Assembly: GCA_965203535.1 (NCBI GenBank)
Contig: OZ241897.1
Coordinates: 5,782,169 to 5,846,168 of the forward strand
DNA length: 64,000 nt
DNA from: Acidobacteriota bacterium
GTDB taxonomy: Bacteria > Acidobacteriota > UBA6911 > RPQK01 > JAJDTT01
Direction: 5' to 3'
Within the stretch, counting starts at the first letter, position 1. Every line of letters begins with the position of its first letter. Below are positions 33,547 through 53,498 of this stretch, one piece after another. The notes under the pieces were generated by a model. It was not told where the DNA came from. It saw nothing but the letters and a program-made list of their open reading frames with translations, and made no database searches. The translations under genes and the position numbers were made by a program.

Positions 33547-33577
33547 CCGAGCACGTGGGTCGAACGGGGCGGCAACG

Positions 33578-36159: not shown

Positions 36160-36421
36160 TCTGTTTTTGAGCATTGACGCGGATTTCGCCAAGGTTCCTC
36201 CGGCACCGACTGCGCTGGGCGCGCGCTCGCTGGTCTTTTCGCCCTCAGCGCGCACATGCTCCCTCAAACGTAGTCACCACTACGTTCTCGGTCACGAGCA
36301 CGCGCTGAGGGCGAAAATCCTGCGCGATCGTCACGCCCCCTGGTGAGAAATGCGGGATGATGCTCGCGGGTTCTCGGTTCGAAGGGCGCTGTGCGCCACC
36401 GACCCCCGGCGTCCAGGAGTC

Positions 36422-36988
36422 ATGGTAGTGCCTGACAATCCCCAGGCGGTGGCGCGGCTGATCCGCGAGTCCAGATCCGGAGACGGGAACGCCCTCTCTC
36501 AACTCTTCCCCGTCGTTTATCAGGAACTGAGAAGGCTGGCCGGCAACTACATGCGCCGGGAGGCCCGCCAGACCTTACCCGCCACAGCCCTGGTCCACGA
36601 AGCGTACCTTCGACTCCTGGGCGAAAAGCAGGTGCATTGGAAGGACAGGGCTCATCTGCTGGGTATCGCGGCCCGTTCCATGCGGCAGATCCTGGTGGAG
36701 CGGGCGCGAGCGAGAATGGCCCGGAAGCGGGGCGGCGGGCAACACGCGGTGACCCTCATCGACGAGACCCTGGGCCAGAACGCGCGATCCATCGATTTCA
36801 TGGCTCTGGACCAGGCACTGCGGGCTCTCGCCGAGTTGGATCCGAAACAGGCCCGACTGGTCGAGCTCAGGTTCTTCGGTGGCCTGACGCTGGCGGAAAC
36901 CAGCGAGGTCATGGGCATCTCTCCTGCCACCACCAAACGCTGGTGGGCGCTCTCCCGAGCTTGGTTGCGACGCGAGTTGAACGGGTGA
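36422..36988 (+). CDS. ECF sigma factor (kinase-associated type)
   Basis: Start MVVPDNPQ preceded by AGGAG; the ORF-track start is 36350. Region 2 (ALSQLFPVVYQELRRLAGNYMRRE) and region 4 (LRFFGGLTLAETSEVMGISPATTKRWW) are present. The stop overlaps (GTGA) the downstream kinase start. Confidence 0.8.
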   Translation: MVVPDNPQAVARLIRESRSGDGNALSQLFPVVYQELRRLAGNYMRREARQTLPATALVHEAYLRLLGEKQVHWKDRAHLLGIAARSMRQILVERARARMARKRGGGQHAVTLIDETLGQNARSIDFMALDQALRALAELDPKQARLVELRFFGGLTLAETSEVMGISPATTKRWWALSRAWLRRELNG

Positions 36989-38517
36989 ACCCGAAAACGT
37001 TTCAGCGAGTCAAGGAAATCTTCGAGGCCGCCCTGGAACAGGATTCGGAATCGCGGGAGGACTTCGTCCGGCGGGAATGTTCCCCCGACACGGAGTTGAC
37101 CCGCGAGGTCCTGTCGCTGCTGTCCCACCACGATCCTGAAGCCACCTTCCTCGAAGGGAACCTGTTTCAACCCGCCGGCGTGGAAACGGCCGCCAGTCTC
37201 CTGGCGGAGGGGGACACCCTGGGCCCGTACCGGATTCTCGGCGAGGCGGGCCGGGGTGGCATGGCGGTCGTCTACCGCGCCGTCGACACGCGGCTGGACC
37301 GTACCGTGGCTCTCAAGGCAGTCTCTCCCCTCGTGGGCCGGGATGTCGAACAACGGCGGCGGCTCCGCCGCGAGGCCAAGGTCGCGGCTTCCCTGAATCA
37401 TCCCGCCATCGCCGCCGTCTATGCCCTGGAGGAACTCGACGGCGGGCTCTTTATCGCCGGCGAGTACATCGAGGGGAAGAATCTGCGATCGCGGATCGAG
37501 CAGGGGCCTCTTCCCCTCCCCGAACTTCTGCGGATGGCGACGCAGGTGTGCCAGGGCCTCGTGGCCGCCCACTCCAACGGCGTGGTCCATCGGGACCTCA
37601 AACCGGAGAACGTTCTGCTGGATGCGCAGGGAAATCTGAAGATCGTGGACTTCGGCCTGGCGCTTCCCACGCTGGAACCTTCCCGCAGCCAGCGCCTGAC
37701 GCAGGAGGGAACCGTTCTCGGAACCCCGGTCTACATGTCTCCCGAGCAGTTGGAGGGACAGGAAGCCGACTTCCGCTCCGACCTGTTCTCTTTCGGAATG
37801 TTGTTGTATGAACTGGCGACGGGCCGTCACCCGTTCGAAGGAAAGACGCCGTTGGCAACCGTGGCCAGGATCCTGGAGGGCAAACCGGGCCGCTCGGATG
37901 CCGTCGCTCCTCCGCCCGCATTGGAACGGATCCTCTTGCGGTGCCTCGAAAAGGAGCCGGCCGGCCGTTTCCCATCCACCGAGGAACTCCTGGAGCAATT
38001 GCTGCGCCTGGAGTCGGAGACCAGTCGCATCCCCCGGCAACCGTCCGCTTCCCGTGAGTCGCTTCACGGTGGCTGGTGGAACTTCCACCAGTCGGCGGTG
38101 ATCCTCTTGTACGCCGTCATGGTCTACGGCGTCTGGGAGTTCAAGCAGGCTGCATCACAGATCCCGGGAACCCGGTTTTTCCCGCTGATTCTCTTCTTTC
38201 TGGTGTTGGCATGCGCCTTGTGCAACGGCACGATTCGCACCCACCTCCTGTTCACGGCGCGTTTCAACCGTTCCGCCATCGAAGCGGAACTGAACCGGGT
38301 CGGCCGCTGGAAACAACGAGTCGACGCGCTCTTCTCCCTGTGCCTCCTGCTGGGAGCCAGTCTGATCGTGACCGGGGACCAACTCCTCGCCGGCTGCCTG
38401 GCTGCCGTTGCCGTCAGCTACACGGTCGTCTTCCTGGTGGTCGAGCCGGCCACCCAGCGGGCCGTCTTCAAACCAGCCGCGTCTCCGGTTCCACCGTCAT
38501 CCCACCGATCCTCCTGA
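36985..38517 (+). CDS. Ser/Thr protein kinase with C-terminal transmembrane segments
   Basis: GTG start at 36985. Hanks motifs: GEAGRGGMAVVYRA (G-loop), VALK, HRDLKPENVLL, IVDFGLA, GTPVYMSPE. Four C-terminal hydrophobic helices. Confidence 0.8.
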   Translation: MNPKTFQRVKEIFEAALEQDSESREDFVRRECSPDTELTREVLSLLSHHDPEATFLEGNLFQPAGVETAASLLAEGDTLGPYRILGEAGRGGMAVVYRAVDTRLDRTVALKAVSPLVGRDVEQRRRLRREAKVAASLNHPAIAAVYALEELDGGLFIAGEYIEGKNLRSRIEQGPLPLPELLRMATQVCQGLVAAHSNGVVHRDLKPENVLLDAQGNLKIVDFGLALPTLEPSRSQRLTQEGTVLGTPVYMSPEQLEGQEADFRSDLFSFGMLLYELATGRHPFEGKTPLATVARILEGKPGRSDAVAPPPALERILLRCLEKEPAGRFPSTEELLEQLLRLESETSRIPRQPSASRESLHGGWWNFHQSAVILLYAVMVYGVWEFKQAASQIPGTRFFPLILFFLVLACALCNGTIRTHLLFTARFNRSAIEAELNRVGRWKQRVDALFSLCLLLGASLIVTGDQLLAGCLAAVAVSYTVVFLVVEPATQRAVFKPAASPVPPSSHRSS

Positions 38518-38621
38518 GCCCTTTTTCTCTCCGTTCTCACATTCCCTGACAGTGCGGCCGATACCCGCCGGGAAACACCCGCCAGATTCTCGGCTGCAGG
38601 AGGAAACCAGGGAGGACTTTC

Positions 38622-39398
38622 ATGCAGAGACAAAAGGGCTTCAAACACGTACGGCATCACGACAGCATCCTGGCCTCCGCCGAAAAAAGACTCCTGGTGT
38701 GGATCGCCCGGCGGCTCCCGTCCCGGGTCAACGCCGATCATCTGAGCCTGCTGGGAGTCGTGGCCATGCTGGGAGTGGGCCTTTCGTACTGCGCGGCTTC
38801 CTGGGACCGGCGGGCCCTGTTCCTGGTCGTGGCGGGCCTGTTGCTGAACTGGTTCGGAGACAGCCTGGACGGCACCCTGGCCCGGGTCCGCAAGCAGCAG
38901 AGGCCGCGTTACGGATACTACGTCGATCACGTCCTGGATCTGGCCGGAACGTTGTTTCTGCTGGGAGGCCTGGCGGCATCCGAATTCATGAGCCCCGTCA
39001 TCGGGCTCGGCCTGCTGACCGCCTATCTGCTGGTGTCCGCCGAGATCTATCTTGCGACCCATGTGCTGGGCGTTTTCCGGCTCTCTTTCCTGAAGGTCGG
39101 ACCGACGGAACTGCGACTCCTGCTGGCCGCGGGCACGGTTTTTATCTTCTACAAGCCGGTGGTCGGGCTGGGAGAACTGGGGACCTTCAACCTCTTCGAC
39201 GTCGGGGGTCTGGCCGGCATCCTGGGTCTGGCCCTGGCGTTTTCCGTTTCCGCCCTGCGGCACACGCGAAGGCTGTACCGCGCCGAACCCCGGCCACGGT
39301 TGCAGCGGCCCCTTCCCATCAGCTTGCCCCGGTTCCCCTCCACCGGATTCGGCCCCATGGGATCGGTATTCCCCGGGTCACAACGCAACCGGAACTGA
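38622..39398 (+). CDS. CDP-alcohol phosphatidyltransferase family protein
   Basis: Strong RBS (AGGAGGAAACCAGGGAGG). Signature D-x2-DG-x2-AR-x8-G-x3-D-x3-D: DSLDGTLARVRKQQRPRYGYYVDHVLD. Polytopic membrane protein. Confidence 0.75.
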   Translation: MQRQKGFKHVRHHDSILASAEKRLLVWIARRLPSRVNADHLSLLGVVAMLGVGLSYCAASWDRRALFLVVAGLLLNWFGDSLDGTLARVRKQQRPRYGYYVDHVLDLAGTLFLLGGLAASEFMSPVIGLGLLTAYLLVSAEIYLATHVLGVFRLSFLKVGPTELRLLLAAGTVFIFYKPVVGLGELGTFNLFDVGGLAGILGLALAFSVSALRHTRRLYRAEPRPRLQRPLPISLPRFPSTGFGPMGSVFPGSQRNRN

Positions 39399-39409
39399 GG
39401 AAGTCTGAG

Positions 39410-39820
39410 ATGGAACACCTGATCCGCTGGGCGCGATTCAACGCCGTCGGCCTGATGGGAGTCCTGGTTCAGATCACCGTGCTCATGCTTCTGCGCGGAG
39501 TCTGGAACCTGCACTATCTGCCGGCCACCGCCCTGGCGGTGGAGATGGCGGTGTTGCACAACTTCTGCTGGCATGAGCGTTGGACGTGGTCGGACCGCAC
39601 GGCAACGGCGGGTACGAGCGTCTTGGGGCGGTTGCTCCGATTCAACATGACGGTCGGAACGATCTCCATCGTCCAGAACCTGTTTCTGATGGAGCTCCTG
39701 GTGGCCGGTCTGAATCTGCACTATCTGCCGGCCAACCTGCTCGCCATCGCCTCCTGTTCCACGTTGAACTACTTTTCCAGCCATTGGCTGGTCTTCCGGC
39801 CGGCCGCCAAGGAGAAATGA
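39410..39820 (+). CDS. GtrA-family membrane protein (polyprenol-linked sugar flippase-like)
   Basis: 136 aa. MEHLIRWARFNAVGLMGVLVQITVLMLL... has the typical GtrA N-terminus and four TM helices. RBS gaggaag. Lies in the frame of the longer ORF 38408..39820. Confidence 0.7.
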   Translation: MEHLIRWARFNAVGLMGVLVQITVLMLLRGVWNLHYLPATALAVEMAVLHNFCWHERWTWSDRTATAGTSVLGRLLRFNMTVGTISIVQNLFLMELLVAGLNLHYLPANLLAIASCSTLNYFSSHWLVFRPAAKEK

Positions 39821-39821
39821 A

Positions 39822-40694
39822 ATGAAGACATCTGCATCGGCCAAAGTGCGGTTGGCGTTTGGAACCGCGGTCCTGGCCACGGTATGTCCCGTGGGCTCCG
39901 GCTCACTGCTTCAGGGCGCCGAGCTGAAACCCGAGACCTTGCTGGCCTGGGACAAGTACGTTCGGATCACCGAGGCAAGAATCCGCGACGAGCTGGCATC
40001 GGAGAAGGGATTCTTCGGACACGAATTCGGTCGAAAGAACGAAGCGCGGGCGGCTTGGCAACAGGTTCGTTCGGGCCGGGTCATGGTCGCCCGGATGGAA
40101 ACGGAGGATTCCCGGGGCCGAACCATCAAGGTCCGCGGTGGAATGATCCACCATTGGCGGGGGGCCATTCTGATTCCCTCCGTCCGGCTGGAACAGGTCA
40201 TCCATCGCCTGCGCTATCCGGACCCCAACGTGCCTCCTCAGAAGGACGTGCTGGAGACGAGAATCTTGGAACGGGACGAGGACTCCCTGCGCATCTACCT
40301 GAAGTTGGTCCGCAAGAAAATCGTCACCGTCGCCTACAACACCGAACACCTGGTCCGTTACCGCTGGCACGATCCGTTCCGGGCCTCGAGCCGCAGCATC
40401 GCCACCCGGATCGCCGAGCTGGAGAAACTCCATACTCCACAAGAGCGGGAAAAGGCGCCCGGACACGACCGGGGATTCCTGTGGCGGCTCAATTCCTATT
40501 GGAGATACCAGCAGGTCGAGGGCGGCGTGGTGGTGGAATGCGAATCCTTGTCCCTGAGCCGCGGCTACCCCGTCATCTTCAAACCCATCGTGGCTCCCAT
40601 CGTGAGGTCCGTCGCCAGGAAATCCATGAAGCGGACGCTGGCCTCGCTCCGAAACCGACTTCTCGCATCCCACACGACACGAGTCAAGCTCTAG
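39822..40694 (+). CDS. Secreted hypothetical protein, paralog of 35221..36159; its 3' end is duplicated at 49307-49390
   Basis: Signal peptide MKTSASAKVRLAFGTAVLATVCP. Shares AELKPETLLAWDKYVR, ...TVAYNTEHLV... and HDRGFLWRLNSYWRYQQVEGGVVVECESLSLSR with the paralog. Confidence 0.6.
   Translation: MKTSASAKVRLAFGTAVLATVCPVGSGSLLQGAELKPETLLAWDKYVRITEARIRDELASEKGFFGHEFGRKNEARAAWQQVRSGRVMVARMETEDSRGRTIKVRGGMIHHWRGAILIPSVRLEQVIHRLRYPDPNVPPQKDVLETRILERDEDSLRIYLKLVRKKIVTVAYNTEHLVRYRWHDPFRASSRSIATRIAELEKLHTPQEREKAPGHDRGFLWRLNSYWRYQQVEGGVVVECESLSLSRGYPVIFKPIVAPIVRSVARKSMKRTLASLRNRLLASHTTRVKL
40567..40650. repeat. Left copy of ~85-bp direct repeat bounding the genomic island (inside the 3' end of the gene 39822..40694)
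   Basis: ccccgtcatcttcaaacccatcgtggctcccatcgtgaggtccgtcgccaggaaatccatgaagcggacgctggcctc is near-identical (1-2 mismatches) to 49307-49390. Confidence 0.75.
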
Positions 40695-41116
40695 TCTCAC
40701 TCAGAATAGATATCCGCTCAATGCCTCGACTTGGCATCCGTCGCTATCCGGTGGCCAAATGGTGGTCCTAATACGTCAAGTTGTCTGGATGATTCGCGCT
40801 TGATCGGCTGAGTCTAGGCTCTCAAAGTTAAGTTCGTGTTTCTACATCGAAAACGAGTCCACGATCGCAGTCAGAAAGCGAGATACCATATAGAACAGTT
40901 CGGAATATGTCCTGATCCCCCGAGGACGCTAATAGAGGCTCCCGAGCCGAAAACGATCCCGCTCGATCAGAGTACGGATTTTGCCGGATCGGAAAAGAAG
41001 TAGTTTGCCCACCGACCAAGGTGGCCACCGTGACCGTCCGCGTCCTGCCCGATACCACCGGTGTTCTCGTCAAGCTGCCGTGTGAAGCGAGGCGGTTTGT
41101 CGGCAAAACATAGCTC

Positions 41117-44100
41117 TCATGTCATGGTGTCAGCATCAACTGGCAATTCGGCTTCAAGATGGATTCGAAGGTCCGCAGCGATGGCTTTCGGTATCGGTGC
41201 CCACGCTGGCTCCTGCTCACTAACGGTGTCACTCTTGTTTACTTCACCCAACTCAGCGGTCCGGATTCTGCGGCCATCCACCTCGTATTTGCCGCCCATC
41301 ACAACATCAAAGAGGTGGGCACGACCATGTACGACGCGGAAACGATGCTCGTCGTAGGTGCCTGCGATGTAGGGGACAGCGACATCCAGGGGACAATTTT
41401 GCTTACCGTGGCTCCAGAGACGTTCGGTTTTGCTACCGATCCGATCGACACGACCCGTCCGCTGCTCAAGCGTCGCCGGGTTCCACGGGAGGTCGTGGTG
41501 GATGACATGGCGGCACTCCCGGTGAAGGTCAATGCCTTCTTGGCCGACCGTGGTGACGACTAGAACCTCTGGAAACAGCGGCGAGTTGAAGCCCATAAAT
41601 AGCCGGTCACGCTCCGAGTTGGCAACCGATCCCGTCACGCGGGCGACGACATCGCGGTTTCTACTCGCATCTTCGTAGACAGAGATTTGCTCCTCAAGGC
41701 CGACTGCCCTCCGGAGTGTCTCCAGGTAAGCGTCGAACCGCTCTTGGGCGGACTCCCCCGCCGCAGACGGTGTCTGGTAGCGCTTGTGGATCAGTGAGGT
41801 CCAGTCATCATCGGCGGTATCGTCGTCGATGCTGGGCCGTTCGTTCGGATCGTCCAAAATGAAGCGGGCGAGGAAGCCGGGTGAACGGACAATGCGACGA
41901 AACATGCGCGTGGCCAACGTGCGGAGTCGGCCGGGCAGTCGCGCCAGCGCAGCCGAGTGACAGCACGTGAGCAGACTCGGCACTTCGATGCCTGGCTCGG
42001 CCAAGTAGGGAGAAAGCGTCGCTTGACCAGCGCGACCTTCGAGCACGGCCTTCCACGCGTCGATGTCTTCGGGCCGAGCGTAATGGCCGGCGGTGTAGAT
42101 GTCCTGATGGTCGGAAAGTAACTTGGATTTTAATTTCGGAAGGATACCTTCGACAACCTCACGGCGGCGAATAGGCCAGTCGGGGGCCAACACAAGGTTG
42201 AGCGACGCCGAAACCGTTTCCGCAAGCCGGAGCGGTCCAACTACGTCATTGATTTGTTGTTGTCCCCGGGAAAACTCCTTCCATCGGTCCACCAGAACCT
42301 GCTCGGCCGCGGCGAGTACACGTCGGCGGCTAAACTGGCTACGGTTGCGCGGCGGACCGCTGAGTGCAAGGCGTACCGCGACATCTGCGATTCCTCGCCC
42401 ACGAAGAGCAAGTCCCTGTGGAACACGTAGTTTCGGTCCTGCGAGGGGGTGGTCCTGGAAAAGCAGAAAGACCGACTGACGGTAGTTGTAAAGCCTCTTC
42501 TGGAAGTTCTTTAGGCGCTGTTCCAGCTTGTCCTCGGTGCACTCAAACGCTGCAGTCAACACCTTCGTATTGTATGTGTCGACCCGTCTCTTTACGGCGT
42601 TTCGGACCGCCTTAACGGTCTCAATATTGAAACAGAAGACCAGGGTCTTGTCGCCCTTACGCCACGCGCGGAAGGCACGCTCTGCAGTAACCGCAACCTT
42701 TGGGTGTTCGTGACCGCCTCCCCTAATCGCCCGCTCGACTAGGCCGAGATAACGCCTCGCCTCCTCGTTGCTCCCAGGCAGCATCCGCCTCAACTCACCT
42801 TTTCGGAAGAACGCGTATGAACCCCCGAGATCAGCTCCGAGGCTCGTCGAGCCACGCCCTCCCTTTTCTTCCTGCACGGCTCTCATCATCAGATAGTGCA
42901 CCAGTTCGGCGTCGCCGCTCACGTCTAGACCGGGTCGCCAACGAAGAACGCTTTCGCGTGTGGGGCGTTCGCTCGATTCTGGATCGGCCTCGCGGCCCAC
43001 CCACCACGCGCGATGTGAGACGTCGCGTAGGTGCCGCAGCAGGAACGGATTGAGGCTCATACTGAGTTGTTTTTGGGTGTCGCGCACGCGCACCAACGCT
43101 TTTACCGCTCGCCGCAGTCGTGGCGGCAGGTGATCAGACCAACCACGCTCGCCATTCTCATCCCAAGCCTGTTCCAGCTCGTTCATGTCACGTTCTTCAA
43201 CCTCGGCCCAAACGCTTCGGAGCGATTCTCCCGCCGCTTTGGCCGCTTGAAGCTGTACATCGAGAGTGCGGATGCGTTCATTTAGGAAGACCATGCGTTC
43301 TTCCGACAAGCCGATGCAGCACCGGAGATCAAGCACCCGGACGAGCTCATGCGGCCTGAGCTGGAACGGGGTCGCAGACAGTCCGAGCAAGCGGTCTATC
43401 CGCAGTCCCAGCGTGTGAAGGAACCTCCACCAGCTCGTTGGGTGGTTCTTCCAGTTGTGAATTTCGTCCACGATAACGAGAGGTACACTGTGGGGCACAG
43501 TCTGACCGAGCGCAGTGCGACAGATTTCTCGCAGATCCACCCAGTAAGATGATCGTTTCGAATGGCCGCTTCGGACTCTGTTCCACGAGTCCTTCATACG
43601 ATCACAAAGTCTGCGGTCGGCAAACTCGAGTCGACTCCACGCGGAACGTATATGGTGGTTGTCGAAGCCCACCTCGTCGGCGCTCCGCGCTTCCTGCCAC
43701 GCTACGGAAGATCGTCGCAGGTCCAGTTTCTCTCGCGTCGGACAGAATGACTGTGATTGGCAGTCGGACAACATCTCAAGGCGCTTTTGCATCGAAAGAT
43801 CGAATCCGTCCATGCGTAGCAGCGAGTGGATGACCGCCATACGCGCAGTATCGAGTCGATGTAGACGCCCGGAGAACGCGGACATACGCGCGATCACCAG
43901 TGTAGGCTTTCGTTTCCTCAGCTTGCGAACCAGATCGTGTGGTGTCTCTGCGGTCTCGACCTCGAAGCCATTGTCCGGCGGTGCCACGTGGAGGAGGAAC
44001 TGTTCAGCCTCTCGCTTCCACTTTGCAAAAAGGGCGTGGGCGTGAGGAGTGACGACGAGCACCGGACCAGTAGAAAGGCCCGCCACCGAACGCTGGCGAA

Positions 44101-44332
44101 GCACCGACCAAGCTACGCCCAACGCCACGAAGGTCTTCCCGAGCCCGACCTCGTCGGCAAGAAGGACGATTTCCCGGCGGCCCTCATCATCATCGTTGTA
44201 CAGGCGCCGAAGGATGGCATCGATGGTGCGCTCCTGCCGCATCGCCGCCTTCTCCACTGCAACAGGATCGCCATCCCCGAGCGCATGGCGGAGTGAGCAC
44301 CGCAAATCGAGTCCGTCGGGCCGTACGATCAT
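41117..44332 (-). CDS. SF2 (SNF2/DEAD-like) helicase, 1071 aa
   Basis: Motif I LLADEVGLGKTFVALGV. Motif II VIVDEIHNWKN. Motif III LLGLSATPFQ. Motif V LVVTTVGQEGIDL. Motif VI LEQRTGRVDRIGS. The start overlaps the upstream PLD gene's stop by 4 bp. Confidence 0.8.
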   Translation of the reverse strand: MIVRPDGLDLRCSLRHALGDGDPVAVEKAAMRQERTIDAILRRLYNDDDEGRREIVLLADEVGLGKTFVALGVAWSVLRQRSVAGLSTGPVLVVTPHAHALFAKWKREAEQFLLHVAPPDNGFEVETAETPHDLVRKLRKRKPTLVIARMSAFSGRLHRLDTARMAVIHSLLRMDGFDLSMQKRLEMLSDCQSQSFCPTREKLDLRRSSVAWQEARSADEVGFDNHHIRSAWSRLEFADRRLCDRMKDSWNRVRSGHSKRSSYWVDLREICRTALGQTVPHSVPLVIVDEIHNWKNHPTSWWRFLHTLGLRIDRLLGLSATPFQLRPHELVRVLDLRCCIGLSEERMVFLNERIRTLDVQLQAAKAAGESLRSVWAEVEERDMNELEQAWDENGERGWSDHLPPRLRRAVKALVRVRDTQKQLSMSLNPFLLRHLRDVSHRAWWVGREADPESSERPTRESVLRWRPGLDVSGDAELVHYLMMRAVQEEKGGRGSTSLGADLGGSYAFFRKGELRRMLPGSNEEARRYLGLVERAIRGGGHEHPKVAVTAERAFRAWRKGDKTLVFCFNIETVKAVRNAVKRRVDTYNTKVLTAAFECTEDKLEQRLKNFQKRLYNYRQSVFLLFQDHPLAGPKLRVPQGLALRGRGIADVAVRLALSGPPRNRSQFSRRRVLAAAEQVLVDRWKEFSRGQQQINDVVGPLRLAETVSASLNLVLAPDWPIRRREVVEGILPKLKSKLLSDHQDIYTAGHYARPEDIDAWKAVLEGRAGQATLSPYLAEPGIEVPSLLTCCHSAALARLPGRLRTLATRMFRRIVRSPGFLARFILDDPNERPSIDDDTADDDWTSLIHKRYQTPSAAGESAQERFDAYLETLRRAVGLEEQISVYEDASRNRDVVARVTGSVANSERDRLFMGFNSPLFPEVLVVTTVGQEGIDLHRECRHVIHHDLPWNPATLEQRTGRVDRIGSKTERLWSHGKQNCPLDVAVPYIAGTYDEHRFRVVHGRAHLFDVVMGGKYEVDGRRIRTAELGEVNKSDTVSEQEPAWAPIPKAIAADLRIHLEAELPVDADTMT

Positions 44333-46467
44333 ATTCGCCCCCGCTGCAGACAGAGATAGATTCGGACAACTTCGGCGTTGGTCTCCGTTGGAAGCTCAGC
44401 AACCACCTTATCGAGCAACGAGGTAACCTCGGCTAACGCTTCGGCCCGAAGTATGTCGGCGACGCCGTCAGCCAGCACCGGAAGCGGTGCGGTCTTGAGC
44501 AGGTACCGCAGTTCCGCGAGTTGAAACGCGGTGGCCACGGCGGTCTTGCGGGGCCGGTCGGGTTGGGGATTACGATAGGAGGCCAACGACTGGCGAGCCA
44601 GCTCGACGGGGGACCGATGTCCCAGCAACGCGGCGCGAAGTCCCGTCTCGTTCATGCCGGCTTCCGACAGGCGGTTACGAACGCCCGGGAGTGCGTGCAC
44701 GAAATCACGCACGAAATAGCTCAAGATGTCCTGCGTAGCCGACGGCAGATCATCGTTCCCCGGAAGAGGATCGATGCTATGGCCGAAGCCCCCGTCCTCC
44801 ATCTCACCGGCGGGCCGTAGCCCGAGAAACCAGGCGACGAGCGATTGCTCGTCCTCTCGGTACCGGGACTCGACGACCGGAAACAAGTGTTTGTCTTCAA
44901 ACACCACGGGTAAAACGGCAACGTTGCCGTTCCACGAGACCTCGGCTTCCAGATCCGGTAGCGCTGGCCACGTCTGACCGTCACCCGACGAACCCTGGTC
45001 CAACCACGACGCACTCAGCGAAGTGGACTCCGAAAATACACCCTCCGAGCTGGCGGGAGAGGACACGGTCCACGCGTCGAACCACTGTTTCTGATTGTAC
45101 AGCCGCGACCGAATGTCCCTCATACGAATGACGACTTTCTCCGGCCAAGTTGTGGCATCGCCCTTGATGAACAGCTCCTCCCTCTTCGCACGCAATGATA
45201 GGATGAAGGTGGGCCAGCCATCCTCGTCGTCGCCAATGTACTCCCGGGGCTCGACGACGAAGTCCTCGGGTCGCCGCGTCACCTTGCGCCACGCAGTTGC
45301 GAAGGACACGATGTCGGAAAGGCCCGAAGACTGGTCGTTCGGGAGTTCCCATAACAGACCCGCCTCCGCGTTCGAGTTGTTGACGAGGCCGAGGCCCTTC
45401 CGTGTGAAGTTAAACGACCCGATCGCGAGCCGCGTCGTCTTGTCGCCTACCGCGAGTAAGACCTTAGCGTGCAACGAGCGATTCCCGGTCGGGCTCGCTC
45501 CCCGGCCATCGGCGACCTTGTCGAACTCGCCCTTATCGTCTTCGTCTTCCGTCGCGCAACCGAAACCCGGGTCCGCAGCAGCCACCTCCACCTTCAACCC
45601 TGCGGCAAGCAGATCCCGCACGAGGCTCGCGGGGATGACTGGCCGAGCTTTCCCCTGCTCGTCCAAGTCCGCGCTCCCGATGAGCTGCACCGTCCCCAAG
45701 CGTCCGCCGCAGAACCGCCCAAGCGCGGTGACGACGTCGGAGAGATCGTTTCCCGATGGCCAGAACGGACTCGCGATGGTTAGCCGACCCACTCGCTCCC
45801 GAGATCCTGCGAGTCGCGGAAAGCCGGTCGCGGAGGGAAGACCCACAAATCGGAGCCGTTTGTCCCGACGCGATGCTGAGCGACTCATGAACACCGCCTT
45901 CATGTCTCGGAGCTGCCGGGTCACTTGGTTTGTCGATGAACCGATCAACCGTTCGAGCCAGTCCACCGCCTCCCGAACAGCCGTGGCTGCCTCCGACAAA
46001 CTACCGCGTGCGTCGTCGAGGGCCGCCGCTACCTCGATATTGCTCCGGTAGCCCGAGTTCGTGAGGTTCGCAGAACCGACAACTAGGCGGACAACCTGGT
46101 TTGCGGCCTCCGGTGAGTCTGGCGCAACGAAACGAAGGAGCGCCACCTTCGCGTGCAGTTTGGGGTAACGCCCTTCGGGCAGTGGAATGAGGTCGATGCG
46201 AGGAGACTTGCGCCGCCCGGGCTGGTAGCGGCCTGGATGGAAAAACACCGACACCTCTGTGTCCGCGAGCGCGTTTTCCAATTCCACGCGAAAGTCCCTC
46301 CCGCGGGCTGGCGGCAATCGCAGGCCAAGCGCGACCGGTAGGATGTCCTCCTCAAGGAAGTCCGCCTGCAGATCGTAGGTCGTAGCGATCACGCTAGCGA
46401 GCCGGTGACCCCGGGGCGCCTCCCAGAGTTCGATGAGTCGACGTGCCATCAAGAAACGGACTTCCAT
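44329..46467 (-). CDS. Phospholipase-D-family protein with two HKD motifs plus ~350-aa C-terminal region of unknown function
   Basis: HKD motif 1 is LHAKVALLRF...GSANLTNSGY. HKD motif 2 is LHAKVLLAVGDKTTRLAIGSFNFTRKGLG. The true start is possibly the internal MARRLIELW at 46449, which would give a 1-nt overlap with the upstream stop. Confidence 0.75.
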   Translation of the reverse strand: MEVRFLMARRLIELWEAPRGHRLASVIATTYDLQADFLEEDILPVALGLRLPPARGRDFRVELENALADTEVSVFFHPGRYQPGRRKSPRIDLIPLPEGRYPKLHAKVALLRFVAPDSPEAANQVVRLVVGSANLTNSGYRSNIEVAAALDDARGSLSEAATAVREAVDWLERLIGSSTNQVTRQLRDMKAVFMSRSASRRDKRLRFVGLPSATGFPRLAGSRERVGRLTIASPFWPSGNDLSDVVTALGRFCGGRLGTVQLIGSADLDEQGKARPVIPASLVRDLLAAGLKVEVAAADPGFGCATEDEDDKGEFDKVADGRGASPTGNRSLHAKVLLAVGDKTTRLAIGSFNFTRKGLGLVNNSNAEAGLLWELPNDQSSGLSDIVSFATAWRKVTRRPEDFVVEPREYIGDDEDGWPTFILSLRAKREELFIKGDATTWPEKVVIRMRDIRSRLYNQKQWFDAWTVSSPASSEGVFSESTSLSASWLDQGSSGDGQTWPALPDLEAEVSWNGNVAVLPVVFEDKHLFPVVESRYREDEQSLVAWFLGLRPAGEMEDGGFGHSIDPLPGNDDLPSATQDILSYFVRDFVHALPGVRNRLSEAGMNETGLRAALLGHRSPVELARQSLASYRNPQPDRPRKTAVATAFQLAELRYLLKTAPLPVLADGVADILRAEALAEVTSLLDKVVAELPTETNAEVVRIYLCLQRGRI

Positions 46468-47786
46468 GCGCCGGCCTCGCGCAACATGGCCGTGAACTGC
46501 TCGAGGCGATATGGGTGTGTGAACTCAGTGCGACCAGGGTTCTCGGGCCTCTCGTCGAGCGCGTACCGGGGAGCGACCACGATATCGACATCGTTATCGC
46601 ACAACTTAACCCAGGGGAGCTTGGGCTGCCGAGAGGCATCGAGCTTGCCGTCCTGCACCCGTTCGTGGTGGCGAATCAGATCGTGAATGACCTCCGCCTC
46701 GTTCTCCGCACGGACAGCTGGTTCGACGGCGCGGTAGAAACTATGCACGGCCGCGTGCACCGAAGGAGGCAGCCGGGCCTTGTGCTGTTCCAGAGCTCCC
46801 GAGAGCGAGTCGCCCAAGCGAGAGAGTGGCACGTCTCCTCCGCTGAGTTGGATGCTCATCAAGGGTGCGGGGCGATGCCGGTCCAACGACGCGCGCACTT
46901 GATTAAAGCGATGGAGCAACTCACGGTGGAGATCCTCGAAGGACGACGCGACAGCGAGGACTGCCGCTAGCTGGTCTGTTCGCGGTTCCCCCTGCTGGCT
47001 GAAGTGCTTGCTAAGCAACCGAAACGAGTTACCATTGGACGTGCTGGCACCCGTCGCCCGCATCGCGGACGCCATCCGCCTGTGAGCGAGCGGCTCTAGG
47101 AGAGCATCGGCGAGCAGCCGACGCTCGTGCATCGAAGCCGCTCCGAGATGCGCCACGTTGCCCCAGTCGGCCAGCGTGGTTTCTGTGAACACGACGTCCT
47201 CTCCACTGATGACCCTACGCAATCGGGCATGGTCAGGCGTCCCCCGGCGTCGAAGAAAGGCATCGGCCAGTTTCTTGCCCCGAGCGGTGAGTGCGCCGGC
47301 GCTGTCCTCGACCAACCGTGCCGCGACCAGACTAACCCAGTAGGTCCCTACGCCGCCCACGCCGGCTTGGTTTCGCAACATTGGGAACGCCGGTGAACGA
47401 ACCCCCTCGGTAACCGCGCGGCGTACATAGGACACACCTCGAAGCTGGTGCCATGAGCGGTCGTCCGCAGCGGCGCCTTGGGCAGTTGCGTGGATACCAG
47501 TGGCCAATGCCACGAGACGCTCCCACGCCAGGATTTTCTGTCGTCGCGCCCGACCGGCTCTACCGCCGGAAGGTGCGTCGGGAAGTTTGTCCAGCAACCG
47601 AAGTCCGGCACAGACCCAGGAGAGATAGCGGACGCGGGACGTGATCGTGGTAACTCCGGGGAGGAGCGTGGTCGCGATTGAAATAAAGGACCGTAGCGCT
47701 CCCAAAGGATCGATGCTACCCGAAACGGCAGCGCGGGGATCCCAGACGGACACGAAGGGTAAGGGCAGAAAGTCAGAACGCTTCAC
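46449..47786 (-). CDS. Hypothetical protein (445 aa) of unrecognised fold, embedded in the nuclease/helicase operon
   Basis: Continuous ORF with GC3 similar to the neighbouring genes. Tightly coupled at both ends, overlapping the Mrr-cat stop and the PLD start. No motif recognised. Confidence 0.5.
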   Translation of the reverse strand: MKRSDFLPLPFVSVWDPRAAVSGSIDPLGALRSFISIATTLLPGVTTITSRVRYLSWVCAGLRLLDKLPDAPSGGRAGRARRQKILAWERLVALATGIHATAQGAAADDRSWHQLRGVSYVRRAVTEGVRSPAFPMLRNQAGVGGVGTYWVSLVAARLVEDSAGALTARGKKLADAFLRRRGTPDHARLRRVISGEDVVFTETTLADWGNVAHLGAASMHERRLLADALLEPLAHRRMASAMRATGASTSNGNSFRLLSKHFSQQGEPRTDQLAAVLAVASSFEDLHRELLHRFNQVRASLDRHRPAPLMSIQLSGGDVPLSRLGDSLSGALEQHKARLPPSVHAAVHSFYRAVEPAVRAENEAEVIHDLIRHHERVQDGKLDASRQPKLPWVKLCDNDVDIVVAPRYALDERPENPGRTEFTHPYRLEQFTAMLREAGAWKSVS

Positions 47787-48415
47787 TAGGTTCCTTGATT
47801 CTCAGTTGCTCTTTTCTTCGGGTGCGAATGCATCTGCTTTCGTCTCCAAAAATCGCGATCGGACACTTTTGGACGCTGATGCGGGGCTGGATGAGGAAAA
47901 CGAACAGCCTTTTGCCATCGGTGAAGGTAATAGGGGGACGACCTCAGCGAACGCAGCTTCCTGAGTCGTTTTGCAGACTGGGAGGCTGTAACGAAAATTT
48001 TGCGGACGGCGTAGAATCGGTAGAGCGTGCCGTGGAGCACGTCGCAGATTTTACGTTGGATCGTAGTGGGATAGCGTTTCACCTGCGAGATATCACGGAC
48101 CGACGTGATGCCGAGATCGTTGTCGCCGGCCACATCAACGCCGTCGTCGTGCGACTGCGCAGTGACCACCACGTTCTGGCAACCCATCTTTTCCAACTGA
48201 CGTCCGATTACGTGCTCAAAGGCGAAGGGGTCCATGTCATCGGGGAGTCCGCGCATGCCATTACGAACCGTGTTCTCCTTATGGCCAATGAGGGCCCGGG
48301 TTTTGCAGTGGTCGTTTCCGCTGACGGAGTCTTCCTCGCTAGCCCAAGAGGCAGACCAGCCCATCCAGCGTCGCGGACAATTCCCTTCCTTTCCGCTTGA
48401 CCAAGCCCAACTCAA
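47786..48415 (-). CDS. Mrr-cat (restriction endonuclease) domain protein, C-terminal part of an apparently frameshifted Mrr-like gene
   Basis: FEHVIGRQLEKMGCQNVVVTAQSHDDGVDVAGDNDLGITSVRDISQVKRYPTTIQRKICDVLHGTLYRFYAVRKIFVTASQSAK matches the PD-(D/E)xK Mrr_cat architecture: D...D...QVKRY...T-T-S. The N-terminal 25 aa of the ORF call are low-complexity and probably out of frame. Confidence 0.6.
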   Translation of the reverse strand: MSWAWSSGKEGNCPRRWMGWSASWASEEDSVSGNDHCKTRALIGHKENTVRNGMRGLPDDMDPFAFEHVIGRQLEKMGCQNVVVTAQSHDDGVDVAGDNDLGITSVRDISQVKRYPTTIQRKICDVLHGTLYRFYAVRKIFVTASQSAKRLRKLRSLRSSPYYLHRWQKAVRFPHPAPHQRPKVSDRDFWRRKQMHSHPKKRATENQGT

Positions 48416-48545
48416 TTTGGTTTCTAAGCCGGTTGCACATTGTATCTATGATGGTCGACTGTTTTCCGGCGGCCACGCGACCCGACAGGTAGTCGCTCCA
48501 CTCGTTGACAAATCGTACGATTCGAGCCCGCCCTTTTTTCACCAA
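48339..48545 (-). pseudogene. Possible N-terminal (winged-helix, Mrr_N-like) segment of the Mrr-like gene in a different frame (frameshift or assembly error)
   Basis: The 68-aa ORF MVKKGRARIVRFVNEWSDYLSGRVAAGKQSTIIDTMCNRLRNQIELGLVKRKGRELSATLDGL overlaps the start of 47786..48415 (48339-48415) in another frame. Joined together they give a ~250-aa Mrr-like protein. Confidence 0.3.
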
Positions 48546-49306
48546 GTTAGAGAGTAGCTTGACGAGCCCTACATCTTTGTTGATGTCGCTCTCAACTTCA
48601 CCGTCGGGCTAATCCGGGAAGTCCTGGCCGCTCTTCACCCGATGGAGGACACCACTGCCATACTTGCGACTGTGCCTTTAGTTCTGCCCGAACAGCCAGT
48701 GGCCATAGGTGTATCGAGGGTTCACACTTTTCGACCGGTCCCAGACAGCCTCGGCATGCTCGTAGTCGCCACCCTAGACCCGCCCCAGGATACGAGTGGA
48801 AGGAATCGGTGTAATCGACCGGATTCCCGGCAATGCCGCGTGACCCACTGTTCGTAGCTCGAAAACCGGTCACTTGCCATAGCCGGCCCCAGAACCACAC
48901 GCGCAGCAGATGTTGGAGCTCCAAGTAGACTGGGAAGAGTGGGATGCGGACCATCCGGGAGCCTTCGCCTCTCGATGCATCAGCCTCGTATTGATGACTA
49001 ATGGCCAGAGCGGGCATGTTTGGGAACGCGTACAGCCCTCAAATCCCGAACCCGCCGGGTCGGATGCTAATCAAAACGCTCTTCTATCCCTCCCGCTTGA
49101 TATCGACCGCAGTGATCGCGGTGAGCGAGGCGGTCGGAATGGACCCGTCAGTGTGTACCAATCTGATTCTTAAGATGGACTTTTCCAGATCATGGTAGCG
49201 AATCGGAACGTGTGCCTTCACGCACTCGACCGCTACCTCTCGACACGCCATACTCTCTTTATTCTCTTTCGATCGAGTAATCAATCGTGGTCCAACCCCG
49301 CTTCGA

Positions 49307-49390
49307 CCCCGTCATCTTCAAGCCCATCGTGGCTCCCATCGTGAGGTCCGTCGCCAGGAAATCCATGAAGCGGACGCTGGCCTCCCTCCG
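49307..49390. repeat. Right copy of the ~85-bp direct repeat (orphan 3' fragment of the paralog gene)
   Basis: Encodes ...PVIFKPIVAPIVRSVARKSMKRTLASL, then diverges from the intact gene (HRLLLTDVAQESLQPVPGS*). Confidence 0.75.
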
Positions 49391-49783
49391 GCATCGCCTT
49401 CTCCTGACCGACGTGGCGCAGGAAAGCCTGCAACCGGTTCCGGGATCCTGATCCCGGGGAGTCCGAGTTCCGGAAACGGCACCGGCACGTCGCGTGCCGA
49501 ACGGTGGAGACTTGGGCCTCAGGCTGCTACGCTGCCAGAGGCATGGGATCCGGAGAGAGCCAGGAGCGGAAACGGCGCGGCGAATACCGGTACAGCGGTT
49601 GGCTCCTGTTGCTGGTGGGCCTCCTGCTGTTGTCCTCCTTCTACTACACTTTCGATCTCTGGCCGGTGAAGCTGCTGCTGACCCTGTTCCTGCTGTCGGC
49701 GGCGAGCTTCCTGTTGTGGAGGGCCGGCCGCCTTTCAAAACGCTGACCTTCCGGGCTCAGGAATCACCGGCTTTCGAAAAACC

Positions 49784-50650
49784 ATGCTCAAACGCAGGGT
49801 GGGCGACGAACTCTGGTGCATCTCGCAGCCGGACCACGCCGCCGCCTCGGGCTACCTGGCCGCCCACTGGGGCAACGGCGAATTCGCCCGCCCCGGTCGA
49901 TACGCTCCCTTCCCCGACCCCGAACGGCTGCGAGCCGAAACCGTCCTCGCCATCGCCGAGCACGACAACGGCTGGTGGGAGTGGGAGGCCGACCCCCAGA
50001 TCGATCCCGCCGACGGCCTCCCGTTGGATCTGACGAGCCTCAAACAGTCCGACGGCCTGCAACGCTGGCGCCTGGGCGTATCCCGCTTCCAGGACAACCA
50101 TCCCCATGCCGCTCTACTCATCAGCTTGCACGCCTACTGGCTGCACGCGCCCCGCGTCGGGGCCGAGCATACGACGGCGTTTCTCCATCCCCTCTTCGGA
50201 ATCCCTGCCAAGTGGCCTCCACCCGAAGGGAGAGACTTGGCGGAAGCCAGGCAGTTCGTTGCCGAACAACACGCTCTGCAGATACTGCTCACGGAAAGCA
50301 TCAAGGGCGATCCCGAATGGGCCGCCGCCGTCGAGCCGCGGCACCTTCACCCTCACATCCGCCTGTTGCAACTTTGCGACGCCCTCTCGCTCCACCTCTG
50401 TTTCGGCGGTGACAGGGAGCGAACTCTCCTGGAGATTCCTCGCGCGAGTTGGAACGATCGGGTCTCACTCAACGTCCGTCCCGCGGGAGATCGCCGCGTC
50501 GCCATCGATCCGTACCCGTTCGACCTGGATCCCCTCACCGTCACCTTTCGCGCCCGTATCCTGAACCCGGAGATTCGACCCCCGGATGACTTCCAGACCT
50601 GGTGGCAGGCGCGCCCCCGCCGGGAAATCCGGTTCCGGTTCGTCCGTTGA
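49784..50650 (+). CDS. DUF3891-like hypothetical protein
   Basis: 288-aa ORF. Features such as ISQPDHAAASGYLAAHWGN...HDNGWWEWEADP resemble the DUF3891 family. Function unknown. Confidence 0.45.
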   Translation: MLKRRVGDELWCISQPDHAAASGYLAAHWGNGEFARPGRYAPFPDPERLRAETVLAIAEHDNGWWEWEADPQIDPADGLPLDLTSLKQSDGLQRWRLGVSRFQDNHPHAALLISLHAYWLHAPRVGAEHTTAFLHPLFGIPAKWPPPEGRDLAEARQFVAEQHALQILLTESIKGDPEWAAAVEPRHLHPHIRLLQLCDALSLHLCFGGDRERTLLEIPRASWNDRVSLNVRPAGDRRVAIDPYPFDLDPLTVTFRARILNPEIRPPDDFQTWWQARPRREIRFRFVR

Positions 50651-50880
50651 ACGCATCACGCCAACTGAACCGGGCGATTGCGGATTGAGGCAGTGTCCTT
50701 ACCGTGGAATGCCGGGCGCCTCCCCTGATTCGACGCGTCCGGAGTTGCGCATCACGCGTTCAGTATGAACAATCACATTCAGTCTGAACAATTGGGCGCG
50801 AGAACACCGGAATCGGTGTCCCTATCCGCTGGTGTGCTTCGGCGGATGACTGGTCAAAGGGAGTAAAACGGAAAGTAGCG

Positions 50881-52623
50881 ATGGCCAGCCGGAAAAACGA
50901 TCCGACCTGGGGACACCGTTGGGGATTCGCCGACACCCGTTTCGTCCTCAATGACGACGATTCGGTGACACTCACCGGTGATCGCTACGAGCTGTGCGGC
51001 TACAAGATGCACGACTTCCTCCCCTACGTGAGAGAGGTCCTGGGACTCGATCCCGATTTCAAGAAAAAACGACCCGAGGCCGATCCCAAACCGGTTCCCG
51101 CCCCCAGAAAGAACACCCGGTTCTGCCGTCGTCTGGCCAATTTCTGCCGTCCCGATCAATTCACCTTCGACGACCGGGACAGACTCATCCACAGCCACGG
51201 GCAGACCAGCGCCGACGAAGTCTTCCGGGTCGTCTACTCCCAACTCGACCGCGTCGCCGACATGGTCGTCTACCCCGAAGCGGAGAAAGATTGTGCGATG
51301 CTGGTGGCGCTGGCCCGGACGCAAGACGTCTGCCTCGTTCCCTACGGTGGAGGCACCAGCGTCAGTTGCGCGCTGAAACTTCCGGCCTCGGAAGAGCGCA
51401 TGATCATTTCCGTGGACATGAGGCGGATGAATCGCATCGAATGGATCGATCGCGAGAACCAGCGGGCCCTGGTCCAGGCGGGCATCACGGGGGATGAACT
51501 GGAACGCCAGCTCGGAAAAGCCGGTTTCGTCTCCGGTCACGAACCCGACAGCATCGAGCTCTCGACCCTGGGAGGGTGGATTGCCACCAATGCCAGCGGG
51601 ATGAAGAAGAATCGATACGGCAACATCGAGGACATAGTCGAAAAAGTGACGCTGATCACGCCCACCGGCCGCGTGGAGCATCTGACGGCCTCCCCCCGGG
51701 TCTCCATGGGGATGCAGCCCCAGAGTCTTTTCTTCGGAAGCGAAGGCAACCTGGGCCTCATCACCAGCGCCATCATCAAGATCCATCCCCGGCCCCAGGT
51801 CCGCAAGTACGGCTCCCTGGTTTTTCCCGACTTTGCCAAGGGTGTCGCCTTCCTTCGGGGCCTGGCTGAAACCAGTTTCGTACCCGCCAGCATCCGTCTG
51901 GTGGACAACGTGCAGTTCCGTTTCGGCCAGGCACTGAAGCCGAGGCCCACCGGATCGGCGGCCTGGTTGGACAAGCTGAAGAAATATTTCGTGCTCAAGG
52001 TCAAGAAATTCGATCCCCATCGGATGTCCGCCGCCACCATCCTCATGGAAGGATCCCGGGAAGAGGTCGACTTTCAGGAAAAGGGCCTCTACAAGCTGGC
52101 CAAGGAGTACGGAGGCCTGCCGGGCGGAGCCGAGAACGGACGCCGCGGCTATCGGCTCACCTTCGCCATCGCCTATATTCGGGACTTCCTGTCGGACTTC
52201 CACATCCTGGGAGAGACCTTCGAGACCTCGGTGCCATGGAACCGCATTCACCAGGTTTGCGACGCCGTCGTGGCCCGGGCTCAGGCCCGGCACCAGGAGC
52301 TGGACCTGCCGGGACGGCCCTACGTCTCCTATCGAATCACCCAGGTCTACCACACGGGAGTCTGCATCTACTTCATGTTCGGCTTCTACGCCAAGGGGGT
52401 GGAGGACCCGGAAACCGTTTTCAGCCAGGTCGAGCATTCACTGCGCCAGGCCATCATCGACGCGGGCGGGTCCATTTCCCACCACCACGGAGTCGGAAAA
52501 CTCCGCAGTGAGTTCATGAAACACACCCTCTCTGCCCGAGGAATTCGGCTCCTGAAAGAGATCAAGCGCTCCACCGATCCAAACAACATCTTCGGCATTC
52601 GAAACAACGTCCTGGGCGACTGA
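50881..52623 (+). CDS. FAD-linked oxidase of the alkyldihydroxyacetonephosphate synthase (ADPS/AGPS)-like family
   Basis: 580 aa. N-terminal WGF-DT-F motif (WGHRWGFADTRFVLNDD). FAD-binding PCMH domain (LVPYGGGTSVSCALK). C-terminal ...HHHGVGKLR... as in ADPS/D-lactate dehydrogenase-type flavoproteins. Confidence 0.7.
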   Translation: MASRKNDPTWGHRWGFADTRFVLNDDDSVTLTGDRYELCGYKMHDFLPYVREVLGLDPDFKKKRPEADPKPVPAPRKNTRFCRRLANFCRPDQFTFDDRDRLIHSHGQTSADEVFRVVYSQLDRVADMVVYPEAEKDCAMLVALARTQDVCLVPYGGGTSVSCALKLPASEERMIISVDMRRMNRIEWIDRENQRALVQAGITGDELERQLGKAGFVSGHEPDSIELSTLGGWIATNASGMKKNRYGNIEDIVEKVTLITPTGRVEHLTASPRVSMGMQPQSLFFGSEGNLGLITSAIIKIHPRPQVRKYGSLVFPDFAKGVAFLRGLAETSFVPASIRLVDNVQFRFGQALKPRPTGSAAWLDKLKKYFVLKVKKFDPHRMSAATILMEGSREEVDFQEKGLYKLAKEYGGLPGGAENGRRGYRLTFAIAYIRDFLSDFHILGETFETSVPWNRIHQVCDAVVARAQARHQELDLPGRPYVSYRITQVYHTGVCIYFMFGFYAKGVEDPETVFSQVEHSLRQAIIDAGGSISHHHGVGKLRSEFMKHTLSARGIRLLKEIKRSTDPNNIFGIRNNVLGD

Positions 52624-52670
52624 CTGCCCGCCGGCGCGCCGCCGGGACGAGAACCCTCACGACCTGATCC

Positions 52671-53498
52671 ATGCCAAAAGGAAGATTCAAACTCCAGGGC
52701 AAGACGGCTCTCATCACCGGCGCCTCCTCCGGCCTGGGAAAGAGACTGGCTCTTGATCTGGCCGCCCAGGGAATGAACCTGGGACTGGCGTCCCGCTCGC
52801 GGCAGTCGCTCCATGAAACGGCCGCCGGAGCCCGGCGAACCGGAGCCGACTGCCTCGTTGTCCCCACCGACGTGACCGACGCCCGGCAGTGCCGAGAAAT
52901 GGTCTCGGCGGTGACTGACGAATTCGGAGCCCTGGACTATCTCATCCTCAGCGCCGGCGTGAGCATGTGGACCCTCTTCGACCAGGTTCAGAACACCGGA
53001 ATTTTCAGGAGGCTCATGGAAGTGAACTACCTGGGGGCCGTCCACTGCATCCATCCCGCTCTGCCGGCCTTGAAGGAGCAACACGGCATGATCGTGGCCA
53101 TCTCCTCCGTCCAAGGCCGGGTGGGCGTGCCGTTTCACAGCGGCTACACCGCCAGCAAGCACGCCCTGGACGGTCTCCTGGAAACGTTGCGGACCGAGTT
53201 GCACGGCCAGGTCCGGATTCTGAACGTGATGCCGGGATGGATCCGGAGCACCCGGCTCCGGGCTCACGCCCTCTCGGCCGACGGTTCACCCCTGGGCTCC
53301 TCCTCGCATCGGTCCCGGAAGGAGCGAGGTGTAAGCGTCCGCGAGTGTTCCCGCCGAATCACAGGTGCGCTCCCGGGACCGGGAGGGAACCTCTACATCC
53401 CCAAGCCCATGGGAATCCTCCCGCTGGTCAAACTCCTGTTTCCGTCTCTGCTCCGCGCCGGGGTCCGAAGAGCCGTCCGCAAACAGACCAAAACGTGA
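52671..53498 (+). CDS. Short-chain dehydrogenase/reductase (SDR)
   Basis: TALITGASSGLGK (TGxxxGxG). Catalytic S...YxxxK (ISSVQGRVGVPFHSGYTASKHAL). Confidence 0.8.
   Translation: MPKGRFKLQGKTALITGASSGLGKRLALDLAAQGMNLGLASRSRQSLHETAAGARRTGADCLVVPTDVTDARQCREMVSAVTDEFGALDYLILSAGVSMWTLFDQVQNTGIFRRLMEVNYLGAVHCIHPALPALKEQHGMIVAISSVQGRVGVPFHSGYTASKHALDGLLETLRTELHGQVRILNVMPGWIRSTRLRAHALSADGSPLGSSSHRSRKERGVSVRECSRRITGALPGPGGNLYIPKPMGILPLVKLLFPSLLRAGVRRAVRKQTKT

Follow-up and report, generated by a model that had tools for sequence, protein, structure and literature searches.

The 64,000-nt window analyzed here (the whole stretch of DNA, positions 5,782,169 to 5,846,168 of contig OZ241897.1 from an Acidobacteriota bacterium) carries an 8.7-kb insert within the 3′ end of a protein-coding gene, which we call the target gene. 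The insert, or island, holds an Azaca-related operon of three genes (A-B-C, for its ZacA-, ZacB- and ZacC-like products) and an Mrr-family pseudogene. The target gene, the ends of the insert and the adjoining DNA comprise the following features, in window coordinates:

39822–40694, plus strand: target gene, now a chimera; 290 aa with a signal-peptide-like N-terminus and no Pfam family
40567–40651, unstranded: attL-like left repeat copy; 85-nt core, with weaker homology over 40559–40664; at the two mismatch sites it carries the alleles of strain L022 (A, G)
40695–41116, unstranded: left end of the insert; GC content about 0.53, without a conserved open reading frame (ORF), RNA family or terminal inverted repeat
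49018–49305, unstranded: right end of the insert; holds an ORF at 49084–49284 (minus strand) with no homolog detected, and no integrase or excisionase remnant
49306–49390, unstranded: attR-like right repeat copy; its alleles (G, C) match L021/L023, and an L021-like haplotype continues into the right flank
49391–49451, plus strand: orphaned native 3′ tail of the target gene, displaced by the insertion; encodes RHRLLLTDVAQESLQPVPGS followed by a stop codon, identical to the C-terminus of homolog P0121
49504–50650, plus strand: native right flank; small membrane protein (49504–49746) and DUF3891 protein (49784–50650), which directly follow the target gene in insert-free genomes

Pairwise alignment of positions 40500–40720 with 49240–49460, together with a repeat finder, defined an 85-nt direct-repeat core (40567–40651 and 49306–49390) whose copies are 98% identical, with two mismatches at 40583/49322 and 40646/49385. 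This is the near-perfect repeat of about 85 bp that the original prediction, an earlier reading of the bare sequence, had described. According to the repeat finder, weaker homology widens the repeat to 106 nt (40559–40664 versus 49298–49403, 92% identity), and there are no further long repeats in the 38–52 kb region. A pattern search of the whole window found exactly two copies of the block (40568–40651 and 49307–49390), with zero expected from 100 shuffles. Upon alignment, the sequence to the left of the right copy was found to be unrelated to that to the left of the left copy.

The exact limits of the insert came from strains that lack it. Three metagenome contigs with 98–99% nucleotide identity to the window (L021–L023) contain a single copy of the block and lack 8,739 bp. 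As aligned, positions 1–10843 of L021 correspond to window positions 29822–40664 and positions 10738–14985 to 49298–53545, such that both repeat copies fall onto one 106-bp segment of the empty site, L021 10738–10843. The insert is accordingly 8,739 bp long, exactly, in keeping with the claim of a precisely bounded island of about 8.7 kb. To look further afield, we searched the 290-aa protein against one genome per species, which yielded nine Acidobacteriota loci. In the five closest species (L001–L005; 80–86% amino-acid identity), the small membrane-protein gene and then the DUF3891 gene come right after the target gene, and no island gene lies within 10 kb. Homologs of 39822–40694 and 49784–50650 are hence neighbors in L021–L023 as well as in L001–L005, with only the small membrane-protein gene between them, which is the empty-site arrangement that the original prediction had proposed looking for. 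Since the site is empty both in five other species and in each of the three conspecific contigs, the insertion is, on this comparison, derived at the genus level at least.

In the left repeat copy, within the target gene, the encoded peptide is ...PVIFKPIVAPIVRSVARKSMKRTLASL; in the right copy, this peptide continues in frame into a different tail, RHRLLLTDVAQESLQPVPGS, with its stop at 49451. In P0121, the 296-aa homolog from an empty-site strain that is 96% identical to the target protein, the C-terminus reads ...ASLRHRLLLTDVAQESLQPVPGS, which is the orphan tail. All 26 of 26 close homologs are 296 aa long and nearly all end in ...PGS, with the end pattern ...RHRLL.T....LQPVPGS. The window's own gene (C-terminus ...ASLRNRLLASHTTRVKL, then stop) is without the conserved ...LQPVPGS end, its conserved 20-residue native tail having been replaced. 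Because the orphan tail is the native C-terminus of P0121 and the native ends of close homologs are conserved, we assign the tail at attL to the element: the target gene is native up to 40651, and its last 14 codons (RNRLLASHTTRVKL and the stop codon, 40652–40694) are element-derived. This tail was absent among the 120 homologs listed. The gene that had been taken as intact is therefore not strictly so, while the divergent orphan tail that had been noticed behind the right copy is identical to the native end. The element-borne tail retains a residual similarity to native tails (RNRLLASH versus RHRLLISH in P0125; 17/30 nt), which is what an element with a gene-end copy of its own should show, and this supports the view that it is a diverged homolog of the same gene end. 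L021 aligns with the left side of the window as far as 40664.

Several features of the target gene are recorded here in their own right. A paralog with 36% amino-acid identity lies about 4 kb upstream, at 35248–36009, and is similarly placed in related genomes. Some more distant homologs are fused to a GtrA domain, and in the window a GtrA-like gene (38408–39820) lies directly upstream of the target gene. Lastly, six substitutions unique to the window are clustered at 39857–39890, in the signal-peptide region, where L021, L022, and L023 agree with one another.

The island also stands out by its composition. GC content is 0.599 over 40695–49306 and 0.635 in the rest of the window; this is the lowest-GC 8.6-kb stretch of the window, yet it lies only about 1.9 standard deviations (sd) under the mean. 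The tetranucleotide signal is stronger, with an L1 distance of 0.274 between the island and the rest, compared to a sliding-window mean of 0.154 (sd 0.034). This places the island 3.5 sd above the window mean and makes it the top outlier, with the peak at start position 40501. The island composition is foreign, and the difference is real although modest in GC. A lower GC content had been claimed for the island and was found, whereas the host background stated with it, ~68%, is 63.5% in the window. Elsewhere, a second lower-GC stretch (0.57–0.61) at 57549–62266 holds a 1073-aa HSP70-like/TPR ORF and a 611-aa ORF without a family, and adjoins a PIN-domain gene at 57003–57428. This stretch is shared with contig L022 up to 59444, where that contig ends, and so is not strain-specific, unlike the island.

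The cargo of the island, all on the minus strand, is as follows:

46449–47786, minus strand: ZacA-like protein; 445 aa, all-alpha, no Pfam family; 19-nt overlap with the start of the ZacB-like gene
44329–46467, minus strand: ZacB-like nuclease of the phospholipase D (PLD) family; 712 aa, Pfam PLDc_2; 4-nt overlap with the ZacC-like gene
41117–44332, minus strand: ZacC-like SF2/SNF2 helicase; 1071 aa, apparently intact; Pfam Helicase_C and SNF2-rel_dom
47943–48957, minus strand: Mrr_cat/NA-iREase1 pseudogene (type IV restriction-like, PADLOC PDC-S02); at least three frame changes and three in-frame stops

The catalytic motifs of the A-B-C operon, whose genes overlap by 19 nt and 4 nt, are intact. 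The ZacC-like helicase has a Walker A motif (GLGKT, residues 63–67), DEIH at 289–292, and Helicase_C at 894–966, and it matches the PADLOC models PDC-M27C (7e-37) and ZacC (7e-32). The ZacB-like nuclease has two HxK motifs (H105/K107 and H333/K335), each followed by GSxN, and matches ZacB (7e-23, residues 11–396) and PDC-M27B (2e-13). The nuclease and helicase genes named in the original prediction are thereby confirmed through Pfam and PADLOC, and its suggestion of defense-type cargo holds by homology in the form of an Azaca-like ZacABC operon and the Mrr pseudogene. The ZacA-like protein is less easily placed. The PADLOC ZacA model matched all 34 of 34 aligned members of its family (best 7e-10), over ~70 N-terminal residues only, and PDC-M27A matched 12 of the 34. 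Pfam DUF6361 matched none of these 34 members at E ≤ 1 and gave one faint match, below the cut-off (E = 0.007), among 10 distant representatives. The family comprises ~680 representative clusters and has no Pfam or NCBIfam model. An AlphaFold (AF2) model was all-alpha with a mean confidence (pLDDT) of 86.5, and no relative of the ZacA-like protein by fold or sequence was found among solved structures in the PDB.

Azaca was reportedly named in Millman et al. 2022. It is a validated defense system in which ZacA carries DUF6361, and the Bacillus ZacABC complex cleaves phage T4 DNA in a manner that requires all three proteins as well as the Walker A motif of ZacC (bioRxiv 10.1101/2025.07.10.664194). 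The island operon resembles Azaca in its three-gene A-B-C layout, its PLD nuclease with intact HxK motifs, its large SF2 helicase with Walker A and DExH motifs, and the match of all three proteins to PADLOC Zac models. It differs in that its A protein is without Pfam DUF6361, the canonical mark of ZacA, and resembles ZacA over ~70 N-terminal residues only, and in that its helicase scores slightly better against the PADLOC candidate PDC-M27C than against ZacC. Because DUF6361 was not found, we file the operon, going by its sequence, as Azaca-related and not as a member of Azaca. By analogy with the Bacillus proteins, its products are predicted to act as a complex in the ATP-dependent degradation of phage DNA, and the operon would in this way defend against phage. 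A further possibility is that the operon represents a system of its own, related to Azaca, whose ZacA-like protein belongs to another family for which Pfam has no model. We also considered DISARM, which the island recalls in having a PLD nuclease and an SNF2-type helicase side by side with weak DrmC and DrmD model matches. These matches are far under the curated cut-offs (32 versus 133 bits and 96 versus 610 bits), and the island has no DrmA, DrmB (DUF1998) or methyltransferase gene; DISARM was rejected.

Next to the operon lies the remnant of a restriction gene. When an intact 388-aa homolog from contig L010 was compared with the island by tblastn, its pieces were recovered in frames −1, −2, and −3, and the C-terminal ~45 residues were without a detectable match. 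The fragments match Pfam Mrr_cat and PADLOC PDC-S02; the N-terminal half of the pseudogene occupies 48348–48957. Since the three long neighboring ORFs are uninterrupted, assembly error is an unlikely cause of the disruption. The gene is akin to Mrr-family type IV (modification-dependent) restriction enzymes and PDC-S02, and the intact L010 homolog sits upstream of A-B-C at the same position; what sets the island apart is that its own copy is a pseudogene, and that Mrr is paired with A-B-C in only one of seven other loci examined. A pseudogene of this kind fits the earlier suggestion that the element is old or decayed.

Homologous A-B-C modules occur elsewhere, in the same gene order in L010, L012, and L024–L026, and at 74–79% nucleotide identity in other metagenome contigs. 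Their surroundings vary. In L010, an intact Mrr gene holds the same position relative to A-B-C; in L011, about 7 kb separate the module from a tyrosine integrase next to an ArdC gene; in L012, it lies among ubiquitin-like, E2, and JAB defense-type genes; in L025 and L026, it adjoins an MmeI-type gene; and in L031, it belongs to an island with McrB, a dynamin-like GTPase, and transposases. These homologous modules are often broken (L010:13535–15910, L011:11342–14906, L031:11311–12390) by an insertion sequence (IS) that interrupts the helicase gene, by splitting of PLD genes or by truncation. Among the contigs concerned are long-read assemblies of low coverage (3–14x), and assembly error may explain part of the damage. 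Neither the att block nor the ZacA-like profile gave a match in IMG/VR, and a viral or proviral carrier of the island was rejected on that account.

The search for a recombinase was negative at every level. No signature of an integrase, resolvase, transposase or excisionase was found in the island ORFs or in a six-frame reading of both ends (47700–49310 and 40690–41120), and the island gave no match to relaxase or conjugation families. The small ORFs at the ends have no Pfam or NCBIfam match at E ≤ 1; ORF 40828–41106 has neither a family match nor a tblastn match in related loci, and the homolog search with the 55-aa ORF next to attR returned nothing. Within 48420–49300, where the original prediction had proposed looking for an integrase remnant, there is only the N-terminal half of Mrr and a homolog-less ORF of 55–66 codons. 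By Pfam, no recombinase is encoded among about 30 larger ORFs elsewhere in the window, several of which have no family at all, and none is encoded in the annotated 27 kb shared with L021. The early statement that no integrase is present is thus upheld for the island ORFs, the six-frame ends, and the larger ORFs of the window. There are no terminal inverted repeats, Rfam matches or tRNA genes, and a scan for promoters and terminators stayed at or below chance level; transposon-like ends and structured RNAs were rejected in view of the missing terminal inverted repeats and Rfam matches. Xer/dif-type integration was considered and set aside, the block being GC-rich coding sequence with no AT-rich dif-like core.

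We then asked whether the site is occupied in other genomes. A metagenome scan with the target protein gave only distant relatives and no other occupant. Homologs with unusual C-terminal tails (P0147, P0219, P0196, and P0216) were explained by natural variation of the tail, by contig ends or by IS-rich regions, and no integrase-bearing island was among them. No integrase-bearing occupant of the site was found in the genome, metagenome, and viral collections searched or in about 20 related loci, few close relatives being reached.

The displaced native tail and the empty site give the locus the geometry of attL and attR at a gene terminus, as had been proposed at the outset. For the mechanism that was proposed with it, we infer that a site-specific recombinase carried out the original crossover and that an integrase, once present, has been lost. 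The explanation that we consider moderately probable, and prefer, is that the island is a decayed integrative element similar to a cis-mobilizable element (CIME), which has kept attL and attR and is now a strain-specific defense islet. A circular foreign element would have borne the last ~110 bp of the conserved host gene, in the form of a host-identical 85-bp block and a diverged tail, and would have recombined with the chromosomal gene end through a single crossover. This event would have fused the host gene to the element's version of the tail (attL, 40567–40694) and pushed the native tail 8.7 kb downstream, behind the second 85-bp copy (attR, 49306–49451). The element would later have lost its recombinase and transfer genes, and its Mrr-family cargo gene would have decayed.

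CIMEs related to ICESt1 and ICESt3 are said to occupy the 3′ end of fda in Streptococcus thermophilus (reportedly Pavlovic 2004 and Bellanger 2011). The island resembles a CIME in its position within the 3′ end of a protein-coding gene, in its attL/attR repeats, which take in the gene end, in having neither integration nor transfer genes, in its accessory cargo, and in its signs of decay. It is unlike one in that its repeat is 85 nt, compared to the 27 nt of ICESt1; that no parental integrase-bearing element is known for its site; that its host phylum is Acidobacteriota; and that its element-borne tail does not restore the native C-terminus. By definition, a CIME retains attL and attR without integration and transfer genes (PMC5704250).

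Several observations weigh against a decayed integrative element. With no integrase, excisionase or remnant present, site-specific recombination is a proposed mechanism. No comparable direct repeats were found flanking other A-B-C modules, and the searches revealed neither another occupant of the site nor a relative of this particular island that bears an integrase. The ZacA-like protein gave no match to Pfam DUF6361, and the defense role is a prediction. Lastly, the block is identical to own-species sequence and carries standing polymorphisms, which precise integrase cycles alone would not predict. Site-specific integration followed by decay is nonetheless our leading model, with a substantial share left to RecA-dependent integration or exchange.

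This second explanation, which we regard as possible but clearly the less likely, needs no dedicated recombinase: a circle or fragment with the defense cassette and ~85–110 bp of its own species' gene end would have entered by RecA-dependent (Campbell-type) integration or repeated homologous exchange, and the islet would be spread or lost in the population via recombination between the repeats or in flanking core genes. The block itself speaks for such exchange. Both copies are identical to own-species sequence at 83–86 of 86 positions, whereas sister species differ at 9–15 of 86, and at the block edges identity falls sharply, to ~57% at the right and to no homology at the left. Both mismatches between the copies are polymorphic among empty-site strains, so that each copy carries one of two empty-site haplotypes (attL the L022 alleles, attR the L021/L023 alleles), which suggests that homologous exchange or gene conversion acted on the block. 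The L021-like haplotype on the attR side runs about 700 bp into the right flank, and the left flank is mosaic. Because the flanks switch between L021-like and L022-like haplotypes, they point to frequent homologous recombination in the population, and the want of any detected recombinase also fits. Mapping the crossover by way of the two mismatches was rejected, since these are polymorphisms of the population and the flanks are mosaic, so that the crossover point cannot be placed. What RecA-dependent integration leaves unexplained is how the element first acquired a diverged gene tail, such as an attP typically has when it replaces the end of a gene; for RecA, 85 bp is also a short substrate, and homologous A-B-C modules elsewhere travel near tyrosine integrases (L011).

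A bolder version of the RecA explanation would make the island one of a class of recombinase-free cassettes that use a host-matched gene end as a portable homology anchor, and which may rely entirely on general homologous recombination to spread inside a species; combined with the claim of a distinct Azaca-related system, we consider it doubtful. An own-species-identical block with population haplotypes in each copy is what such a cassette would have, but the other copies of the operon are without such repeats.

Slightly more doubtful still is that the islet is an intact hitchhiker, which never encoded an integrase and is moved in trans by that of another element of the same genome, located outside the 64-kb window, through recognition of the 85-bp att block. 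The nearly perfect att-like copies (2 mismatches in 85), the intact A-B-C operon, and the documented cis-mobilization of integrase-less att-flanked elements (PMC5704250) are in agreement with such hitchhiking. Against this, no candidate integrase was seen in the window, about 20 related loci held no integrase-bearing element at the site, and the Mrr pseudogene points to decay and not to a streamlined design. That the island is ancestral in the species, with the window showing the older state and the empty sites arising by precise deletion between direct repeats, is very improbable: recombination between the 85–106-bp repeats would restore the exact native gene of L021–L023 and the heavy Mrr decay suggests long residence, but five other species and three conspecific contigs are empty, the composition is still clearly foreign, and the proposal concerns timing only, with an original integration still needed.

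At this locus, a gene gain in soil Acidobacteriota is thus resolved to the base pair, in a phylum for which mobile elements and phage defenses have received little study, and one population holds both occupied and empty alleles. The locus identifies the 3′ end of the conserved target gene as an integration site and points to a sizeable Azaca-related family, of about 680 representative clusters for the A protein, without a Pfam or NCBIfam model. The understanding of such islands is unchanged, since decayed integrative elements commonly carry defense genes.

At ~56845–56850, 7.4 kb to the right of the island, the strains differ at a second spot. Here L021 (18198–20665) has a pair of genes, PDDEXK_4 (350 aa) and AAA_15 (472 aa), between the Meth_synt_2 and PIN genes; the window is without the pair, and L022 retains only a 57-aa AAA_15 remnant. 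This looks like another small defense-type presence/absence polymorphism. Short intergenic repeats are also dispersed through the window. A 32-nt unit is found in at least four places, some inverted (53596–53627, 4170–4201, 756–787, and 3744–3769), and a 47-nt unit in two (53770–53816 and 29005–29051), and the region 53545–53820 is rearranged relative to L021 and L022. These dispersed units may belong to an element of the repetitive extragenic palindrome (REP) or miniature inverted-repeat transposable element (MITE) type.

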